Assembly (NCBI GenBank): GCA_004563715.1
Contig: SIRX01000021.1
Span: forward strand, 1,580 to 65,579
Reading direction: 5' to 3'
DNA from: Actinomycetota bacterium
Lineage (GTDB): Bacteria; Actinomycetota; Rubrobacteria; Rubrobacterales; Rubrobacteraceae
Length of the DNA: 64,000 nucleotides
Shown: positions 7,276 to 15,223 of the stretch, piece after piece
Numbering within the stretch: the first letter of the stretch is position 1
How the letters are laid out: each line of letters opens with the position of its first letter
Made by a program: the position numbers and the translations under genes
Notes under the pieces: generated by a model
Seen by the model: only the letters and a program-made list of their open reading frames with translations
What the model was told of the DNA's origin: nothing
Database searches by the model: none

Positions 7276-8853
7276 TCAGGAAACCTCACACATAAAGAGC
7301 GGCGGGATGTGCATGTAGGTCGTGCTCGGGCTGGGGCCGACGACGTCCCGGGCCATCTCCAGGGCTTCGGCGACGGAGGCGGCGCGTTTGTAGCCCATGC
7401 GGGCGGTGGTGTAGGGGTCGCCGCCGACGAAGATAACGCCTCCAAGATGGTCGAGGGCGTGGGCGCCCCACTGCCAGGTGGTGAACGGGTGCCAGCCGTG
7501 GTAGGCGTGGGCGTGGCGGTAGAGGGTCCGGTACCAGGGGTCGTAGATGTACTTCTCCTCGAAGCGTTGCTCCGCCTCGTGCGGGTCGGTGGTCTCGGCG
7601 ATGACCTCCTCGAAAAAGGGCCGGTAGCTCGGGTGGTGGGCGTCGTCGAAGTCGTTGGGCACCGGGTGGGTGGCGATTATGACGCCGCCCTCACGCACCA
7701 GCGGTTTGCCCCGGTAGAGGTTGAAGAGGTAGCCGAGGACCATGTTGTGGACCAGGATCGGGTTCATTATGGAGTCCACGTTGTACGGCCCGAGGTACGG
7801 CACCCCGAGGAGCAGCACGTCCGCCTGGCCCTCTACGTGGACGAGCTGCTGGCGGTGGAGGTTCCTGATCGTCTCGTCGTGGACGGCGTCGGTGGCGCCG
7901 GCCTGCACGCTGGTCATCCGGTGCGGCGCGACGATGGACTGGAAGACCCGCCGGGCCACGCTGCGGGGCATGAGGCTGGTCGACTTGTGGTTGGCGAGGA
8001 AGTTGGCCTTCGTGATGGCGCTCCACTCGTGCTCGGGCTTGCCCATGAAGTCGAAGACCGCCGGGAAGGTGGCGTTGTTCAGCGTCGTCTCGATGTGGAA
8101 GACCTTGATGGCGTTGTCCAGGAGCTCGCCCATCCGGTTCACCGAACCGTGCAGGGCGGAGTTCGGCGGGTCCATGAGGCTCCTCGTGTTCCGCAAGGTG
8201 TGGGCGTTGTGGTGGTGGCGGATGGAGGAGTAGGGTGAGATGCCGGTGTGGACGGACTTGTGGCCGCCGTTCATGGAGACCAGGTTGATGTTCACGTAGA
8301 CGACCAGGTCGCTCTCGGCGGCGCGCTTGCTGATGCGGACCTGCTCGCCGTGCGCCGTCTCCCCGATGACCGTGTTGCCTTCTTCGTCCTCGGCGTCGTA
8401 GTTGTAGAGGCGGTCGGGGTAGTAGCGGGCCATGATCTTCTTCCCCAGCGCCCAGCGCAGCTCTTTCTCGGTCATGCGGCGGTGCAGCCCGAGCGCGGCG
8501 ATGAGGTGGATGTCCTCGACGCCCTTCGCGGCGGCCTTCTCCAGCACCTTCTCGATGACGAGCTGGCGGTTGTCCGGCGGGCGCATCGGCGGCAGCGGGC
8601 ACGAGACGTCGTCGAAGACGATGGTGAGCTTCATGCCGGGGAAGAGCAGCTCGTGCAGCGGCTCCATGCCCATCGGCTCCAGGAGCGCCCTCTCGATGGC
8701 GACGTTCGGGTCCGGCAACGGGTCCACGGGCGCGGGAGGGTAGATCACGCGGGTCCCCTCCGGCAGCTTCTCGTAGTGGAACCCGTCCCCCGCGTTGAAC
8801 ATCATCGGCGGGCTGTCGCTGTCCAGCGTGATCGTAAACCCGGGTCGGCTCAT
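7276..8853 (-). CDS. LarA-like (DUF2088, lactate-racemase-family) protein
   Basis: Motifs IAALGLHRRMT and NGGHKSVHTGISPYSS (equivalent to the GG-x-K cofactor-tethering region). The start was trimmed to ATG 8853, preceded by GGGAGGAAAG. The track ORF is 25 codons longer. Confidence 0.7.
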   Translation of the reverse strand: MSRPGFTITLDSDSPPMMFNAGDGFHYEKLPEGTRVIYPPAPVDPLPDPNVAIERALLEPMGMEPLHELLFPGMKLTIVFDDVSCPLPPMRPPDNRQLVIEKVLEKAAAKGVEDIHLIAALGLHRRMTEKELRWALGKKIMARYYPDRLYNYDAEDEEGNTVIGETAHGEQVRISKRAAESDLVVYVNINLVSMNGGHKSVHTGISPYSSIRHHHNAHTLRNTRSLMDPPNSALHGSVNRMGELLDNAIKVFHIETTLNNATFPAVFDFMGKPEHEWSAITKANFLANHKSTSLMPRSVARRVFQSIVAPHRMTSVQAGATDAVHDETIRNLHRQQLVHVEGQADVLLLGVPYLGPYNVDSIMNPILVHNMVLGYLFNLYRGKPLVREGGVIIATHPVPNDFDDAHHPSYRPFFEEVIAETTDPHEAEQRFEEKYIYDPWYRTLYRHAHAYHGWHPFTTWQWGAHALDHLGGVIFVGGDPYTTARMGYKRAASVAEALEMARDVVGPSPSTTYMHIPPLFMCEVS

Positions 8854-8961: not shown

Positions 8962-9663
8962 TCAGCCCGGCCCTTCGAGCCGGGGAGCGGCGCTCTCGGA
9001 GACGCCGGCGAGCCGCTTCTCGAACGTCCGCCGCCAGGAGGCGGAGAGCGCCGACAGCGCGAGCAAACGCTCGATGCCCGCCGCGTCGCGCCGGTCGCGG
9101 TGCATGACCCGGTTGGCCTCCGCCACGCTGACACCTTCCGGCGGGCGCTCGACGAGCTCTATAGCGTCGTCCGCCCGCACCTCCCCGGGTTCGAGGCACC
9201 GGAGGTAGAAGCCGGTGCGCCCGGTCTCCTGCACCCACAGCGCCAGCTCTTTCACCTCGTGGCGGGCGGCGAGCTTGTAGCAGGGCTGGCGCGGCTGGCT
9301 CACCTGCACCGCCGCCTCCCCGACCCGGTACACGTCCCCGACGCACACCTCCGGCTCCAGCAGCCCCTCCGTGGAGAAGTTCTCGCCGAAGGCGGCGGGC
9401 TCCAGCGGGCGGGCCAGCCGCTCCCGCCAGTACGGGTAGTGCTCCAGGGGGTAGACGCAGACCGCCTTGTCCGGCCCGCCGTGCGCCTTGAGGTCGGCCT
9501 GGGCGTCGCCTTCGAGACCAGTCTCCTCCAGCCACAGCGCCCCCAAAACCGGCGACTTGCGGAACCCGCTCTGCACCCACCGGCCCCGGTAGGCCAGCGG
9601 CGCGGGCTGCCCCACGTTCAGCGACTTCAGGCGCGCCGGTTCACCATCCTGGATAAAGTCCAT
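8962..9663 (-). CDS. MOSC domain protein (YiiM-like, with a C-terminal 3-alpha helical domain)
   Basis: Contains GDAQADLKAHGGPDKAVCVYP..ENFSTEGL..VCVGDVYRVGEAAVQVSQPRQPCYKL plus the helical tail VSVAEANRVMHRDRRD. Confidence 0.8.
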   Translation of the reverse strand: MDFIQDGEPARLKSLNVGQPAPLAYRGRWVQSGFRKSPVLGALWLEETGLEGDAQADLKAHGGPDKAVCVYPLEHYPYWRERLARPLEPAAFGENFSTEGLLEPEVCVGDVYRVGEAAVQVSQPRQPCYKLAARHEVKELALWVQETGRTGFYLRCLEPGEVRADDAIELVERPPEGVSVAEANRVMHRDRRDAAGIERLLALSALSASWRRTFEKRLAGVSESAAPRLEGPG

Positions 9664-9675
9664 TGTCTCCCCTCC

Positions 9676-10299
9676 TCAACTTGCGGTTGCGGGCTCGTGC
9701 TCCGGGCAGTCCGTCCGCAGGTCCGCGACGGCCAGGGGCGCGTCGAGCAGGGCGCAGTGGTGCGGCGCGTCGCCGCCCGGATGGGCGTCCGGCCGAAAGA
9801 AGCGGCAGGTCACGCACATCCGGGCGACCGAGATCACACCCGCCCGCTGCAACGACCCGATGAGGCCCATGAGAAAGCGCAGGACGACCTCCTTCTCCTC
9901 CGCCGGCGTGCCCTCCAGCCGCTCCCGGATGACCTCGGCCCAGGTCGAGAGCTCGCCCGCCAGGGCCTTTCCCGCCGGGGTGAGCCGCAGCGTGGCGACG
10001 CGCCCGTCGCCGGGCCAGGGCTCGCGGCTGACCAGCCCCTTGCGCTCCAGGGCGCCCACGGCGTCGCTGACCGTGGCCCGCGTGAGGTCGAACTCGCGGG
10101 CGAGCCGCCCGACGCGGCGGAGCTCCAGGTCGTGGAAGAGCAGGTGGACGAGGAACTGGGCCTGTATCGGGCTGAGGCCGTGCTCCCGCGCCGCGTCGCG
10201 CAGCAGCAGCTGGAAGACCCGCGAGAGCCGCTCCAGCGCGGCGACGAGCTTGGCGTCCACGTCGCCGTGCTGCCCGGCGGGCTCGAAGACGGAGCCCAC
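9676..10299 (-). CDS. MarR-family transcriptional regulator with a Cys/His-rich C-terminal extension
   Basis: Winged-helix core LSPIQAQFLVHL...RLAREFDLTRATVSDAVGALERKGLV. The tail is CVTCRFFRPDAHPGGDAPHHCALLDAPLAVADLRTDCPEHE. Confidence 0.75.
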   Translation of the reverse strand: MGSVFEPAGQHGDVDAKLVAALERLSRVFQLLLRDAAREHGLSPIQAQFLVHLLFHDLELRRVGRLAREFDLTRATVSDAVGALERKGLVSREPWPGDGRVATLRLTPAGKALAGELSTWAEVIRERLEGTPAEEKEVVLRFLMGLIGSLQRAGVISVARMCVTCRFFRPDAHPGGDAPHHCALLDAPLAVADLRTDCPEHEPATAS

Positions 10300-10333
10300 T
10301 ACCCGACCTCCCCCGACTGTAGCGAACGCGAAC

Positions 10334-10933
10334 TCAGAAGTCCCCTTCCCGGGTGTACGGGTAGCTCCACAGCGTCACGTGCAGCACCACGGACTTGAAC
10401 CAGGCGTCGTACATCTTCTCTACCTCTTCGGTGGTGTGGCCCTTGTTCGCCAGAAAGGGCTTGATGGTCGCGGTGATAGGGTAGATGAACGAGATCATGT
10501 ACCGCAACCCGATGTGATCCGGGGTCTCGTACGCCCCGTCGGTCTGGTTCTTCTTGATCCGGGTATGGCGCAGCGCGATCTCCTGCTGGTAATCTAGCCA
10601 TTTCTCGTCGTAGGACCGTCGGCAAGCGTCGAGTATCCACTGACCGAACCTCTCCCTGACCCGCCCCAGGTACGCCTCGTCGGGGTTCCCGTCCGCGTCG
10701 GAGAAGTAGCGGACCAGGTGCGGATGCGAAGCGACGAAACCGTACCATACGTCGAGCACGTCCTCGACCTGGTCCTCCAGCACGTCCCCCGCCAGCCGCA
10801 GGTACTCCTCATCCTCCCCGCCGAACATCACCGTCTGCCGCAGCAGGTCCAACTCCTCGACGCCCAGCGGCGATACCGCCGTACCCGACGCACCAAAACC
10901 GTAACCCGGTATTCCCGCCCGTCCCTCGACCAT
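10334..10933 (-). CDS. Single-domain protoglobin
   Basis: Contains KWLDYQQEIALRHTRIKKNQTDGAYETPDHIGLRYMISFIYPITATIKPFLANKGHTTEEVEKMYDAWFKSVVLHVTLWSYPYT. From memory this is very close to archaeal protoglobin sequence. RBS is GGAAGGAG. Confidence 0.8.
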   Translation of the reverse strand: MVEGRAGIPGYGFGASGTAVSPLGVEELDLLRQTVMFGGEDEEYLRLAGDVLEDQVEDVLDVWYGFVASHPHLVRYFSDADGNPDEAYLGRVRERFGQWILDACRRSYDEKWLDYQQEIALRHTRIKKNQTDGAYETPDHIGLRYMISFIYPITATIKPFLANKGHTTEEVEKMYDAWFKSVVLHVTLWSYPYTREGDF

Positions 10934-10974: not shown

Positions 10975-11003
10975 AATATCTCAGACAGCGCGGGTCGTGT
11001 CAA
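10975..11003 (-). promoter_or_regulatory. Candidate promoter TTGACA-17-GATATT upstream of the protoglobin gene
   Basis: On the minus strand the -35 is at 10998-11003 and the -10 at 10975-10980. It lies about 40 nt upstream of the ATG. Confidence 0.35.
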
Positions 11004-11030: not shown

Positions 11031-12236
11031 CTACCGGTGGTCGAAGACGACCTTGACGTGACCCTCGCGGCCGGCGTTGCGGGCGGCGGCGAGGGCCGAG
11101 CGGTACTCTTCGAGGCGGAACCGGGGGCCGACCATATTCTCCACGTGGATCCCAGGCGCGAGGCGCAGCGCGAGCTCGAAGCTCTTTACCTTCTCATCCC
11201 GGTAGTCCTCGACGCCGTAGGCGTAGGCGCCGGAGAGCCGGACCTCCTTGTGCCAGAGGGCGGTGAGGTCCAGGCAGTTGCGCGCGCCCGGCATCCCGAC
11301 CATGACGGTCTCGCCGCCGGGGCGGGTCAGCCGGAGGGCGTCCTCCAGCGTGGACGGTGAGCCCACGCACTCGAAGACCTTCTCCGCGCCGCCCAGCACC
11401 ACCGGCTTGCCAAGCTCCGGTTTGTGGGCCTCGGTGCCGAGCATAGCGGGGAGCTTTGTGTAGGTGTCCTTCGGGTGGACGACCTCGCTCGCGCCGAGCC
11501 GGAGGGCCTCCTCTTTCTGGCGCGCGTGTTTGGCGACGCAGATAATGCGGCCGGTGTCCGTGAGATGGCGCAGGGCGGCAACAGCGAACAGCCCGACGCT
11601 GCCCGCCCCGATCACGAGCGTCGTGTCGCCGGGCGCCGGGGCGGCCTTCAGGGCGGCGTGGACGGCGCAGGCCAGCGGCTCCACGGCGACGGCGGCCTCG
11701 TCCGGGAGGTCGTCGGGAACGCGGTGGAGCTGGGAGGGGTGGGCGACGAGCGTCCGCTGGGTCCAGCCGCCGCCGGTGTCGCGGCAGAAGCCCGTCTGGA
11801 TGCCGGGCGAGACGTCGCCCCTCGCCACGTTCAGGCACAGGGCGTACTGGCCCGCGGCGCAGTACGCGCAGGGCGGGGAGATGCCCCGGGCTTCGCAGCC
11901 GAGCGCGGGCTCCAGCGCGACCCGCTCCCCGGCCACAAAGCCCGAGTTGCTCTCGGTGACGACGCCGGTGACCTCGTGGCCCAGGACGAAGGGAGGGGAG
12001 GTTATCGGGGAGAAGTACGGCGAGTTCTCCGAGGAGAGCGTCCCGAGGTCCGAGCCGCAGATGCCGGAGAGCAGGGGTTTCACCCGGACCCATTCCGGCG
12101 TCGGAAGCTCCGGGTCGGGGACGTCCTCCAGTTGCAGGGGCGAGAAGCGGCCCGTCTCCAGGCCCTTTATCCTCTTGGCGCCGGCGCGCATGAGCAGGTA
12201 GCGCGGGACGGACTTGCGGTAGCGGAGGGAGAGCAA
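11031..12236 (-). CDS. Zn-dependent medium-chain alcohol/polyol dehydrogenase
   Basis: Contains LLSGICGSDL, FVLGHEVTGVV and the Rossmann motif LVIGAGSVGL. It starts 2 nt after the stop of the upstream reductase fusion gene. Confidence 0.8.
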   Translation of the reverse strand: MLSLRYRKSVPRYLLMRAGAKRIKGLETGRFSPLQLEDVPDPELPTPEWVRVKPLLSGICGSDLGTLSSENSPYFSPITSPPFVLGHEVTGVVTESNSGFVAGERVALEPALGCEARGISPPCAYCAAGQYALCLNVARGDVSPGIQTGFCRDTGGGWTQRTLVAHPSQLHRVPDDLPDEAAVAVEPLACAVHAALKAAPAPGDTTLVIGAGSVGLFAVAALRHLTDTGRIICVAKHARQKEEALRLGASEVVHPKDTYTKLPAMLGTEAHKPELGKPVVLGGAEKVFECVGSPSTLEDALRLTRPGGETVMVGMPGARNCLDLTALWHKEVRLSGAYAYGVEDYRDEKVKSFELALRLAPGIHVENMVGPRFRLEEYRSALAAARNAGREGHVKVVFDHR

Positions 12237-12238
12237 CC

Positions 12239-14515
12239 CTAGACCTTCTTGGGGGTCTTGAGAGGCGTGCCGTCCTTGTCCCAGTGCCGGACGGGCCAGC
12301 CCCGCTCTTCGGCGGCGGCTTTCAGCCGGCGGTCGGGGTTGACGGCCACGGGGTTGCCGACGGCCTCCAGCATCGGCAGGTCGGAGATGGAATCGGCGTA
12401 GGCGTAGGACCTGGAGAGGTCCACCTTGCGGCGGCGGGCGAAGGAGGCGAGCATCCGGGCGCGGGCGTCCCCGGCGACCGGCGCGCCGGCGAGCTCGCCG
12501 GTGTAGGCGCCGTTCTCCTCTTCGAGGGAGGCGCAGAGCACGTCGTCGGCGAGGTCTTTCATCGGCTCCAGCAGGAAGTCCAGGGCGCCCGAGAGCAGCA
12601 CGACGCGGTGGCCGGCCTCCTTGTGGGCGCGGAGCCGGGCGAGGGCCTCGGGGAAGATGCGCTGCAGGGTAAAGCCCTCGAAGCTCTCCCGCCCGAGCCG
12701 CCGGGCACGCTCCGGCTTCCAGCCCGCGTAGTTCTTGTAGAAGGCGCGGTTGAAGTGGGCGCGGCTGACCTTGTCCAGCGCCCAGTAGTAAGGAATCTTG
12801 GGCAGGAAAGAGGCGAGCCAGAGGGGACGCTTCGCCGGGGGGAGCTCCCGCAACCGGAGCCAGGCGTAGTAGGAGACCACATTCGAGCCCACGAGGGTTC
12901 CGTCCACGTCGAAGATCGCCGCGACCTCGCCGGGCTCCTTGGAGGCGGGTTGCTTGCGCCGCTTGCGGCCGGGCTTGGTCGTGAGCGCCGGCAGGTGCGT
13001 GGTGTGCAGGTACTCGCGCCAGTCCAGGTCGGTGATGTCGAAGGGGAACTCATGTTGGTCTTCGGGTAGAAGCTCCTTGTAGAGCTGCGCGGTGCGGGCG
13101 GTCGAGAAGGTGGAGGCCATGTTGGCGTAGGCCCCGTAAATGCGGCTGTAGTAGAGGCTCATCTTGGCGCGTTTGTCGGCCCGCGCGATCCGCTGCCGCA
13201 GGTCGGCCGCCACGTGGCCGTCGGGCAGCCGGGAGACGACCTTACCCGCTATGTTCAGGCCCAGGATCTCGGCCTTCAGGAAACCCTCGACGCGGGCGCG
13301 CCCCGGGAAGCTCCACTCGGCGACCGGGATCGGGCGGCCGCCGGAGTCCCGCAGCGGTTTCTGGATAAAGTACTCCCGGACGTGCTCGTAGAAGTCCCGG
13401 TAGCGGAGCGGGTTGCGCTCCCCGGAGGCCACCTGGAAGACCTCGGGCTCGACCGGACGCCGGATGGCGGCGGCCAGAACGGCGTTCACCACGTGGTCCA
13501 CAGGGACCAGGTCCACCAGGCTCTCGGGGTCGCCCGGAAACTCCCGGAGAAGTCCCTTAGCGAACGCCATGATGATCGGGTCCGCCATGCGGGAGCCCTG
13601 GATCCAGCCAGGATAAGGCTCCCGGTGGCTGCTCTCGATAATCGCCGGCCGCAGTATGATGAGCGGCGACTCCCCCCGCTCCAGCAAAACCATCCGCTCC
13701 GCTAGCGACTTGGTGAACGTGTATACGTCGTGCCAGCCGAGCTCCCGGGCCCGCACCGTCCCGCGCTCCACGAGCCGCTCGCGCATCCAGGCCCGCCGGA
13801 GCTGGTCGGCCCGCCCGGCGACCTCCTCCTCGGAACCGACCATCCCCAGCTCGGTCTCGGCCTCCGAGGCGAACCGTCGTGTGAGGTCTCTCTCCCTTGA
13901 GGCCCGCTCCACCTCCGCGACGATGCCCTCCAGGCTGGCGACCTCGTCCCGCGGGTCGAGCGTCGTGCCGTTGGGCGTGGTCGAGCCCGGCGGCTTCTCC
14001 AGCACCAGACCCTCCTGCGTCCCCGAGACGTAGGCGGTGGAGATGTGCATAAAGAGCGGCTTTCTCTCCCAGCCGCGCGCCAGCCGCAGCAGCCCCAGGG
14101 TCCCTTCGACGTTGGAGCCCACGGCGGCGTCCAGGGGGGCGTCGAAGATCACGGACGCCGCCGAGTGGACGACGATGTCCACCTCGCGCGAGAGCTCCGA
14201 GAGGTCATCCTCTCCGAGCCCGAGCCCCGGGGCGTGCACGTCCCCCTCCAGCACGCGCACCTTGCCGGCCACGTAGTCCCCGAAGCCCTCGCCCCGGGAC
14301 TCGCGCAGGTTGCGGAAGGCCGCCGAGCCGAGCACGTCCTTCTCGAAGCGGTCTCCGGCGTTCTTCTCGCCGGAGGCCCGGACCAGGAGATAGAGGCGGC
14401 CCAGGTCGGGCAGGCTGCGCAGGATCTTCTCCACGAGCGCCGTCCCGAGAAAGCCGGTTCCCCCGGTCAGCAGCAGGCTCTTCCCCCGGTAAGCTCCGCG
14501 CAGGGCGCTATCCAT
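12239..14515 (-). CDS. Fusion protein: fatty acyl-CoA/ACP reductase (NAD_binding_4 type) N-terminal part plus HAD-IB phosphatase C-terminal part
   Basis: N-terminal part has LLLTGGTGFLGTALVEKIL, HISTAYVSG and YTFTKSLAE (YxxxK). C-terminal part has HAD motif I AAIFDVDGTLV, then LLSGALDFLLEP and AYADSISDLPMLEAVGNPVAVNPD. Confidence 0.75.
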   Translation of the reverse strand: MDSALRGAYRGKSLLLTGGTGFLGTALVEKILRSLPDLGRLYLLVRASGEKNAGDRFEKDVLGSAAFRNLRESRGEGFGDYVAGKVRVLEGDVHAPGLGLGEDDLSELSREVDIVVHSAASVIFDAPLDAAVGSNVEGTLGLLRLARGWERKPLFMHISTAYVSGTQEGLVLEKPPGSTTPNGTTLDPRDEVASLEGIVAEVERASRERDLTRRFASEAETELGMVGSEEEVAGRADQLRRAWMRERLVERGTVRARELGWHDVYTFTKSLAERMVLLERGESPLIILRPAIIESSHREPYPGWIQGSRMADPIIMAFAKGLLREFPGDPESLVDLVPVDHVVNAVLAAAIRRPVEPEVFQVASGERNPLRYRDFYEHVREYFIQKPLRDSGGRPIPVAEWSFPGRARVEGFLKAEILGLNIAGKVVSRLPDGHVAADLRQRIARADKRAKMSLYYSRIYGAYANMASTFSTARTAQLYKELLPEDQHEFPFDITDLDWREYLHTTHLPALTTKPGRKRRKQPASKEPGEVAAIFDVDGTLVGSNVVSYYAWLRLRELPPAKRPLWLASFLPKIPYYWALDKVSRAHFNRAFYKNYAGWKPERARRLGRESFEGFTLQRIFPEALARLRAHKEAGHRVVLLSGALDFLLEPMKDLADDVLCASLEEENGAYTGELAGAPVAGDARARMLASFARRRKVDLSRSYAYADSISDLPMLEAVGNPVAVNPDRRLKAAAEERGWPVRHWDKDGTPLKTPKKV

Positions 14516-15107
14516 CTCTGTTCACTCTCTGGCCCACCTTCCGTTCCGTACCCCTCAGCAGCGACCGGACGTTCTCCCGGTGCCGCCACAGCACGATGGC
14601 GGCGCCCACGGCGGTGTAGAGCACGTAGGGTAGCGGCTGGCCCGCCAGGAAAAAGACGACCGGGCCCGCCAGCATTACGGATATTGCCGCCAGGGAAGTA
14701 TACCGGCTCGTCAGCGCGACGACCCACCAGAAGGCGAACAGGCCCAGGGCCACAAGCGGGGCGAGCCCGAAGACGGTCCCGGCCCCCGTGGCGACGCCCT
14801 TCCCTCCCCTGAACTTTAGGAACACCGGCCAGCAATGGCCCGCCACCGCCGCCAGGGCGACGAACGCGATGATCCACTCGTCGTTCACGAGCAGCCGCGC
14901 CAGCACGACCGGGACGAGCCCTTTGAGCATGTCACCGAACATCGTGAGGCCCGCGGCCCACTTGCCGGCGGCCCGCAGGACGTTGGCGGTGCCGATGTTA
15001 CCGCTGCCCACCTTACGGATGTCCACGCCGGCCGCCCAGCCGACCAGAAGCCCGGTCGGAACGGCGCCCAGCAGGTATCCGAGCAGGACGAGAACCACCC
15101 CTAACAT
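14508..15107 (-). CDS. plsY: Glycerol-3-phosphate acyltransferase PlsY
   Basis: Contains GSGNIGTANVLRAAGK and FLKFRGGKGVATGAG. Its stop overlaps the start of the reductase fusion gene by 8 nt. Confidence 0.9.
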   Translation of the reverse strand: MLGVVLVLLGYLLGAVPTGLLVGWAAGVDIRKVGSGNIGTANVLRAAGKWAAGLTMFGDMLKGLVPVVLARLLVNDEWIIAFVALAAVAGHCWPVFLKFRGGKGVATGAGTVFGLAPLVALGLFAFWWVVALTSRYTSLAAISVMLAGPVVFFLAGQPLPYVLYTAVGAAIVLWRHRENVRSLLRGTERKVGQRVNRDG

Positions 15108-15151
15108 GGCGGGAAGTATAGCTTAACGGTGCGTCTTTATCCTGTTCGAAA

Positions 15152-15223
15152 GGGGCCTTTGCGGCCCGGAACCCCGCTATTTTTCTTGCAGGCAACGGAC
15201 GCCGGTGTACCCGGCGGGTTGCC
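15152..15223 (-). terminator. Two GC-rich hairpins downstream of cobU; possible end of the cob operon
   Basis: Plus-strand coordinates: ggcaac-gga-cgccgg-tgtac-ccggcg-g-gttgcc at 15191-15223, and gggcc-tttgc-ggccc within 15152-15167. On the minus strand only a weak U tract (CUUUCG) follows. Confidence 0.3.

Follow-up and report, generated by a model that had tools for sequence, protein, structure and literature searches.

We analyzed a 64,000-nucleotide stretch of DNA (the window) from a Rubrobacteraceae genome (assembly GCA_004563715.1, contig SIRX01000021.1, positions 1,580 to 65,579), focusing on minus-strand genes for the acyltransferase PlsY, a fusion of an acyl reductase with a HAD-IB phosphatase, a Zn-dependent dehydrogenase, and, farther downstream, a homolog of LarA. 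Together, these genes are probably the Rubrobacteraceae version of the Elb-type, oxygen-tolerant ether-lipid gene set, which would make the 1-O-alkyl-glycerol(-phosphate) of mixed ether/ester lipids. This functional reading is based on homology, synteny, and the published lipid phenotype of the Rubrobacterales.

The first three genes are tightly packed. The plsY gene (14508-15107, minus strand; 199 aa) overlaps the fusion gene (12239-14515, minus strand; 758 aa) by 8 nt, a junction that can be read directly from the sequence as ATGGATAG. The fusion stop and the start of the dehydrogenase gene (11031-12236, minus strand; 401 aa) are separated by a 2-nt gap, TAG-gg-TTG, with a Shine-Dalgarno-like AAGAAGG just upstream. 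Phylum-wide conservation of the N-terminal motif LxLEYxRSxPRY indicates that the TTG start is genuine. These coordinates and junction sequences agree with a first-pass annotation of the same DNA, which had described the three open reading frames, the overlap, and the gap, and had proposed that the three genes form a unit for non-canonical lipids of an ether, alcohol, or diol type. The product of plsY matches PF02660 (174 bits) and TIGR00023 (171.7 bits against a cut-off of 137.2) and on these matches is assigned as a bona fide PlsY, an acyl-phosphate:glycerol-3-phosphate acyltransferase. By profile search, it is the sole PF02660 gene in the host genome (G000, 99% complete), where plsX lies on a different contig.

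The fusion of a reductase with a HAD-IB phosphatase, as first annotated, is confirmed by domain searches with Pfam and TIGRFAM. The reductase part (residues 10-512; 12980-14488, minus strand) contains an NAD_binding_4 domain (residues 16-346, 225.9 bits) and a FAR_C-like region, where the Sterile/FAR_C match is weak (residues 456-506, 32.9 bits, under the cut-off of 35.4). The closest solved structure to residues 10-512 is PDB 7eoz, "Fatty acyl-CoA reductase" (E = 6.6e-80), and at the family level, the domain appears to be of the alcohol-forming fatty acyl-CoA reductase (FAR) type. The phosphatase part (residues 532-731; 12323-12922, minus strand) matches both PF12710 (residues 533-717, 133 bits) and TIGR01490 (HAD-IB; 132.6 bits against a cut-off of 98.3), and its motifs are intact: FDVDGT (motif I), LLSGA (motif II), and DSISD (motif IV). 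Orthologs of only 40% identity keep FDVDGT and DSISD along with the reductase motifs TGGTGFLG, STAYV, and YTFTK. The HAD nucleophile, Asp536, is invariant among the fusion orthologs. At the second acidic position of motif I, 13 of 13 Rubrobacteraceae sequences have Asp and 57 of the 78 other orthologs have Glu; DxDGT (residues 536-540, approximately 12896-12910) also occurs in 19 orthologs outside the family. As the general acid/base of a HAD phosphatase, the Glu of DxEGT is unusual.

The relatives of the reductase domain point to ether-lipid synthesis. In Myxococcus xanthus, ElbD has the architecture FAR-ACS-ACP-AGPAT, i.e., a reductase followed by an acyl-CoA synthetase (ACS), an acyl carrier protein (ACP), and an acyltransferase, and disruption of elbD strongly reduces ether lipids (Lorenzen et al. 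2014, reviewed in PMC9131029). We searched 1.84 billion representative proteins exhaustively; among non-fusion proteins, those closest to our reductase domain have this full ElbD architecture (NAD_binding_4, Sterile, AMP-binding, PP-binding, and Acyltransferase domains; 1413-1469 aa). They are 39-44% identical and align to fusion residues 3-523 with E values of 1e-99 to 1e-111. A further representative, P0248 (1223 aa), joins FAR and AMP-binding (ACS) domains to the same HAD family (PF12710) and is thus a third fusion of Elb-type modules.

The dehydrogenase contains ADH_N and ADH_zinc_N domains, and its nearest characterized relatives are idonate 5-dehydrogenase, threonine 3-dehydrogenase, ketose reductase, and xylitol dehydrogenase, in keeping with the initial description of a polyol/threonine-type Zn-dependent alcohol dehydrogenase. 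Both zinc sites are conserved: 55-56 of 56 orthologs retain the catalytic Cys60 and His87 as well as the four cysteines that bind the structural zinc. A conserved VAKH, with no acidic residue, follows the GxGxxG motif, which suggests a preference for NADP(H); the enzyme is probably an NADP(H)-linked dehydrogenase of the polyol/secondary-alcohol type.

The fourth gene (7276-8853, minus strand) encodes a LarA homolog of the group 14 type (NF052592, LarAH14/15/16; 847 bits against a cut-off of 740), which shares 54% identity with the N-terminal fragment printed for Frankia LarAH14. It is transcribed in the same direction as the dehydrogenase, from which a 2.1-kb insertion carrying a protoglobin-MarR-MOSC block parts it, and had been annotated as a separate "orphan." Synteny within the family places it with the cassette. 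Of 61 Rubrobacteraceae genomes, 58 have the LarA homolog and 59 have the dehydrogenase. Where both are on one contig (51 genomes), the LarA homolog is always downstream of the dehydrogenase, on the same strand, and within 6.6 kb (51/51); the gap is <300 bp in 31 of these genomes and 0.7-6.6 kb in the other 20. Thus, the gene at 7276-8853 belongs with the operon because family genomes keep it downstream of the dehydrogenase, and the separation seen here is due to an insertion. This junction seems to accept insertions in other Rubrobacteraceae as well, given the gaps of 0.7-6.6 kb. Two genomes of the family show other states: G011 (98% complete) has no dehydrogenase match at E <= 1e-60 and carries its LarA homolog on another contig, and in G013, the LarA homolog is in two pieces.

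The rest of the arrangement is also stable within the family. The order plsY-fusion-dehydrogenase is identical in 11 of 11 related loci, and the full-length fusion is found in 31 of 31 sampled Rubrobacteraceae genomes, so the arrangement is not due to chance. The fusion also extends far beyond the family: it is present in 110 of 401 genomes in an even sample of Actinomycetota, and a scan with one genome per species found relatives in at least 556 species. We judged gene order from 80 fetched Actinomycetota loci, where the flank was long enough. Nearly all have the order fusion-dehydrogenase-LarAH-AGPAT, and wherever the flank suffices, the gene after the fusion is essentially always the dehydrogenase. 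In other families, the fusion orthologs share 40-46% identity with ours, and a TetR gene often joins the cassette. Carriers include Micromonospora, Phytohabitans, Actinoallomurus, Actinomadura, Frankia/Parafrankia, Pseudonocardiaceae, Jiangellaceae, Haloechinothrix, Wenjunlia, and many uncultured lineages.

Altogether, this shows that the conserved core consists of the fusion, the Zn-dehydrogenase, the group 14 LarA homolog, and an AGPAT acyltransferase, with plsY outside of it. The first-pass annotation had instead drawn a three-gene unit of plsY, fusion, and dehydrogenase; its direction toward ether-type lipids is borne out by the ElbD-like reductase and the ether-lipid family, but the functional unit has to be redrawn. 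Its expectation that the fusion would be accompanied by plsY and the dehydrogenase holds for the dehydrogenase, which follows the fusion, but fails for plsY. All listed Rubrobacteraceae genomes have plsY immediately upstream of the fusion, and this linkage is restricted to Rubrobacteraceae; outside of the family, an AGPAT-family gene takes its place, and several cassette-rich families mostly lack PF02660 altogether. One or the other glycerolipid acyltransferase, AGPAT or PlsY, always accompanies the cassette.

The restriction of plsY linkage to one family would be expected if plsY were a chance neighbor and the fusion, the dehydrogenase, and the LarA homolog handled a soluble phosphorylated polyol or sugar acid, without any common lipid function. 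The nearest characterized relatives of the HAD domain, histidinol-phosphate and phosphoserine phosphatases, would also fit such a role. We find this very improbable, given that an AGPAT or PlsY is always present, that the reductase belongs with the long-chain FARs and has a FAR_C-like region, and that natural fusions link this reductase to acyl-CoA synthetase, ACP, and AGPAT. The typical alcohol-forming FAR domain could alternatively serve a fatty alcohol, wax ester, or neutral lipid pathway, with its alcohols going into envelope or storage lipids and accessory roles for the other genes; wax esters are in general common in actinobacteria. Such a pathway seems quite unlikely here, as the cassette has no conserved wax synthase/DGAT gene and the strict linkage of the HAD phosphatase, the Zn-dehydrogenase, the nickel-cofactor enzyme, and the acyltransferase or PlsY would be left unexplained.

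The LarA homolog is a presumed nickel-pincer-nucleotide enzyme. In LarA, K184 tethers the cofactor, H200 is a nickel ligand, and H174 is the second catalytic histidine. Across 52 cassette orthologs, the equivalents of H108, K184, and H200 (H124, K199, and H215) are conserved, while the H174 equivalent is absent, with I/V in its place and a conserved Asn beside it. From these residues, the protein probably binds the nickel-pincer nucleotide cofactor and is unlikely to be a canonical two-histidine racemase. Groups 14 and 15 of the LarA homologs show the same residue pattern (Table S3, PMC7583248), and Desguin et al. propose that such homologs may catalyze a hydride-mediated reaction other than racemization (PMC7583248). 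The genes for biosynthesis of the nickel-pincer nucleotide cofactor are larE, larB, and larC. LarB (NF033503, 228 bits against a cut-off of 175), LarC, and LarE are encoded on other contigs of the host genome, where the homolog at 7276-8853 is the sole LarA-family gene (a single PF09861 match) and so is the only candidate client of this cofactor pathway. In the wider phylum, 15-17 of the 80 fetched loci carry larE, larB, and larC immediately ahead of the fusion.

These properties bear on two further explanations. In the first, the products would be long-chain 1,2-diol or hydroxy-acid lipids or head groups: the LarA homolog would isomerize a 2-hydroxy acid (for example, a 2-hydroxy fatty acid or a glycerate derivative), the reductase would reduce its thioester, and the dehydrogenase, phosphatase, and acyltransferase would process the resulting diol. 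The characterized LarA homologs all act on 2-hydroxy carboxylic acids, the closest relatives of the dehydrogenase use polyols and sugar acids, and diol lipids had already been suggested in the first-pass annotation. We nevertheless consider diol products unlikely: the cassette has no conserved hydroxylase or other source of 2-hydroxy acids, the LarA homolog is without the second catalytic histidine needed for racemization, the lipids reported for Rubrobacter, in the secondary accounts of them, are 1-O-alkyl glycerols, and the system-level match to elb favors ether lipids. Neither the diol nor the free-alcohol alternative gained specific support from the present analysis. In the second explanation, the LarA homolog and the dehydrogenase, both of which work at secondary-alcohol carbons, would act on a glycerol phosphate derivative, inverting or equilibrating its C2 and so changing the backbone configuration of the ether lipids. 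The literature describes the stereochemistry of Rubrobacter ether lipids as not yet established, which leaves room for such editing. We give it very little weight, as the one catalytic histidine makes a canonical two-base inversion unlikely, the reductase would be left without a role, and the Elb-made ether lipids of M. xanthus are written as ordinary sn-glycero-3-phospho lipids (PMC9131029).

The Elb-type reading is strengthened by comparison of gene contexts. In the M. xanthus elb operon, ElbA and ElbE are of the NAD-dependent epimerase/dehydratase type, ElbB is a HAD-like protein, and no function has been assigned to ElbC (PMC9131029). LarAH group 15, which includes MXAN_1529, occurs with two COG0451 genes, COG0560 (100%), and COG1022 (PMC7583248); group 14 occurs with COG0204, COG0560, COG1063, and COG3320 (Table S1, Desguin et al. 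2020, PMC7583248). The group 15 context corresponds to the elb operon and the group 14 context to the actinobacterial cassette. We infer that MXAN_1529 is ElbC because elbD is MXAN_1528 and the group 15 context matches the elb operon. The name "LarAH15" was also given to a Phytophthora gluconate 2-epimerase in a 2024 Journal of Biological Chemistry (JBC) paper; that protein may belong to another group than MXAN_1529 and is left out of this comparison.

The window and elb thus share a FAR1-like reductase homologous to the ElbD N-terminus, a LarA homolog of NCBIfam NF052592 (group 15 for MXAN_1529, group 14 here), a glycerolipid acyltransferase, extra NAD(P) dehydrogenases, and an aerobic host with ether lipids. 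At the family level, the HAD phosphohydrolases of the two also correspond (PF12710/TIGR01490 here, COG0560 in the context of the MXAN_1529 group), which makes ElbB a candidate counterpart. They differ in that the reductase is fused to HAD here but to ACS-ACP-AGPAT in ElbD, the dehydrogenase is a Zn-dependent medium-chain dehydrogenase/reductase (MDR) here while ElbA and ElbE are of the short-chain dehydrogenase/reductase (SDR) type, and plsY is in the acyltransferase position, with the LarA homolog set apart by the 2.1-kb insertion. Compared to the cassette of other actinobacteria, the fusion, dehydrogenase, and LarA homolog are orthologous (40-55% identity) and in the same order and on the same strand, whereas the window has plsY upstream, no AGPAT or TetR downstream, and DxD rather than the DxE of most other members in HAD motif I. 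Its Rubrobacter host also differs from theirs in having a documented ether-lipid phenotype.

The ACS, ACP, and AGPAT modules are absent from the 64-kb window. Elsewhere in the host genome, a 903-aa ACS-ACP-AGPAT protein (contig C126, 2530-5241) has the ElbD architecture minus the reductase. It is conserved in Rubrobacteraceae and, in this genome, stands by itself beside an SRPBCC gene and a transporter gene; a protein search with it returned close Rubrobacter relatives only. In a reciprocal-best-hit comparison of the cassette AGPAT with its AGPAT domain, the cassette gene was the best match in one of three genomes.

The best matches carry Rubrobacteraceae or Rubrobacter names, and this lineage is known for ether lipids. 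In Rubrobacterales, up to approximately 46% of core lipids are ether-linked (1-O-alkyl glycerol), mixed ether/ester polar lipids are dominant, and the Rubrobacter group is the one actinobacterial group with a known dominance of 1-O-alkyl glycerol ethers (Sinninghe Damste 2023, as relayed in PMC10821996 and PMC11181052). Few other routes to such lipids are visible in the genome. We found no HGD-D (PlsA/Ger) domain, with no PF06050 match in the 99% complete assembly, and no AGPS: the PF02913 matches there are a GlcD-like protein with a GlcE-like neighbor and a 963-aa Fe-S fusion. Only two proteins match NAD_binding_4 strongly, the fusion and a protein resembling nonribosomal peptide synthetases (NRPS), with an adenylation-thiolation-reductase (A-T-R) layout. 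Because there is no PlsA/Ger, no AGPS, and one other strong NAD_binding_4 protein, the fusion would be the obvious source of the alkyl chains in Rubrobacter ether lipids.

The A-T-R protein (1033 aa) lies outside the window, at 1183-5059 of contig C29 together with the 260-aa SDR that follows it. It is conserved across Rubrobacteraceae, with matches of approximately 1030-1100 aa, and could form an amino alcohol from an amino acid by reduction. A phosphothreoninol head group has been reported in some Rubrobacter species.

The AGPS route to alkyl glycerol ethers, in eukaryotes and in M. xanthus (MXAN_1676-1674), uses GNPAT, FAR1, AGPS, an alkyl-dihydroxyacetone-phosphate (alkyl-DHAP) reductase, and a phosphatase. 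The present gene set offers candidates for the acyltransferase, the FAR, an NADP(H)-type reductase, and the phosphatase; it differs in having no AGPS homolog, and the LarA homolog is the one enzyme without an assigned step. The proposed route begins with PlsY, whose family is established to make 1-acyl-glycerol-3-phosphate from acyl-phosphate. The reductase domain would then, by its family function, convert acyl-CoA or acyl-ACP to a fatty alcohol. In the third step, the sn-1 acyl group would be swapped for this alcohol on a C2-oxidized intermediate at the dihydroxyacetone-phosphate level, as in AGPS, with oxidation and re-reduction carried out by the LarA homolog and/or the NADP(H)-type Zn-dehydrogenase. 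The HAD-IB domain may then dephosphorylate the alkyl(acyl)glycerol phosphate, which would allow CDP-alcohols to donate the head groups. Acylation at sn-2 would be done by an acyltransferase elsewhere in the genome and, in other actinobacteria, by the cassette AGPAT.

More tentatively, the LarA homolog, as the counterpart of ElbC, could itself be the ether-bond-forming enzyme of aerobic bacteria that lack AGPS, although we hold this to be doubtful. In such a hydride-borrowing reaction, the nickel-pincer cofactor would take the C2 hydride of 1-acyl-glycerol-3-phosphate, giving a transient acyl-DHAP with an activated C1. The fatty acid at C1 would then be exchanged for the fatty alcohol from the fused reductase and the hydride returned, yielding 1-O-alkyl-glycerol-3-phosphate. 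The single catalytic histidine of the LarA homolog would suit such a one-face, redox-neutral reaction.

Several observations weigh against assigning the locus to ether-lipid synthesis. Micromonospora, Frankia, and Actinomadura carry the cassette but, to our knowledge, are not recognized as ether-lipid makers. The position of plsY may reflect mere co-regulation, as this is the only PlsY of the genome. A possible second acyl reductase is encoded outside the window (contig C135, 46065-47930): this 621-aa protein combines an extended SDR (HpnA/OleD-like) with a classical SDR in a PRK07201-type layout, at 122 bits against a cut-off of 549. Frankia LarAH14 (Franean1_4168), the sole assayed member of the actinobacterial cassette, was inactive in all seven hydroxy-acid assays (PMC7583248), and the 2-hydroxy acids on which every characterized LarA homolog acts are not glycerol phosphates. 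In M. xanthus, a clear requirement exists for elbD only, and the effect of elbB was attributed to polarity (PMC9131029).

The flanks of the gene set suggest how it may be transcribed. Upstream of plsY on the same strand is a large cobalamin (cob) operon. In the intergenic region between them (15108-15175, minus strand), the sequence reads as a GC hairpin, GGGCC-GCAAA-GGCCC, after the cob operon, and then TATACT, 7 nt before the plsY ATG. A consensus promoter scan did not flag TATACT, which may be a candidate promoter of the leaderless type. This layout points to a transcript of the lipid genes that is separate from the cob operon and possibly leaderless. The inserted protoglobin-MarR-MOSC block, assigned by Pfam (8962-10933, minus strand, between the dehydrogenase and the LarA homolog), is preceded by a promoter-like TTGACA-17-GATATT (10975-11003) and is outside of the lipid gene system.

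The basic idea of an ether-lipid operon in Rubrobacter is probably not new, given a 2023 paper by Sinninghe Damste et al. (Syst Appl Microbiol 46:126404). Its abstract reportedly describes a putative operon for 1-O-alkyl glycerol phosphate in five Rubrobacter genomes that resembles those of other aerobic ether-lipid producers. That operon is probably this locus. In the literature library searched, no paper linked LarA, nickel-pincer, or DUF2088 with ether lipids or elb. What is added here is the variant in which plsY stands in for AGPAT, the insertion that hides the LarA homolog, and the placement of the cassette in a host with a documented ether-lipid phenotype.

For AGPS-free synthesis of non-isoprenoid alkyl glycerol ethers in aerobic bacteria, Myxococcus genetics ties in elbD only. 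The Rubrobacteraceae provide the simplest system for a test, as culturable organisms with ether-lipid-dominated membranes, a compact gene set, and a single LarA-family protein available to larBCE. If our reading is true, it would provide the first role for the nickel-pincer cofactor beyond hydroxy-acid racemization, along with a function for ElbC and the orphan LarAH group 14, and approximately a quarter of the sampled Actinomycetota would have to be considered as possible producers of the alkyl glycerol ethers in soils and sediments.

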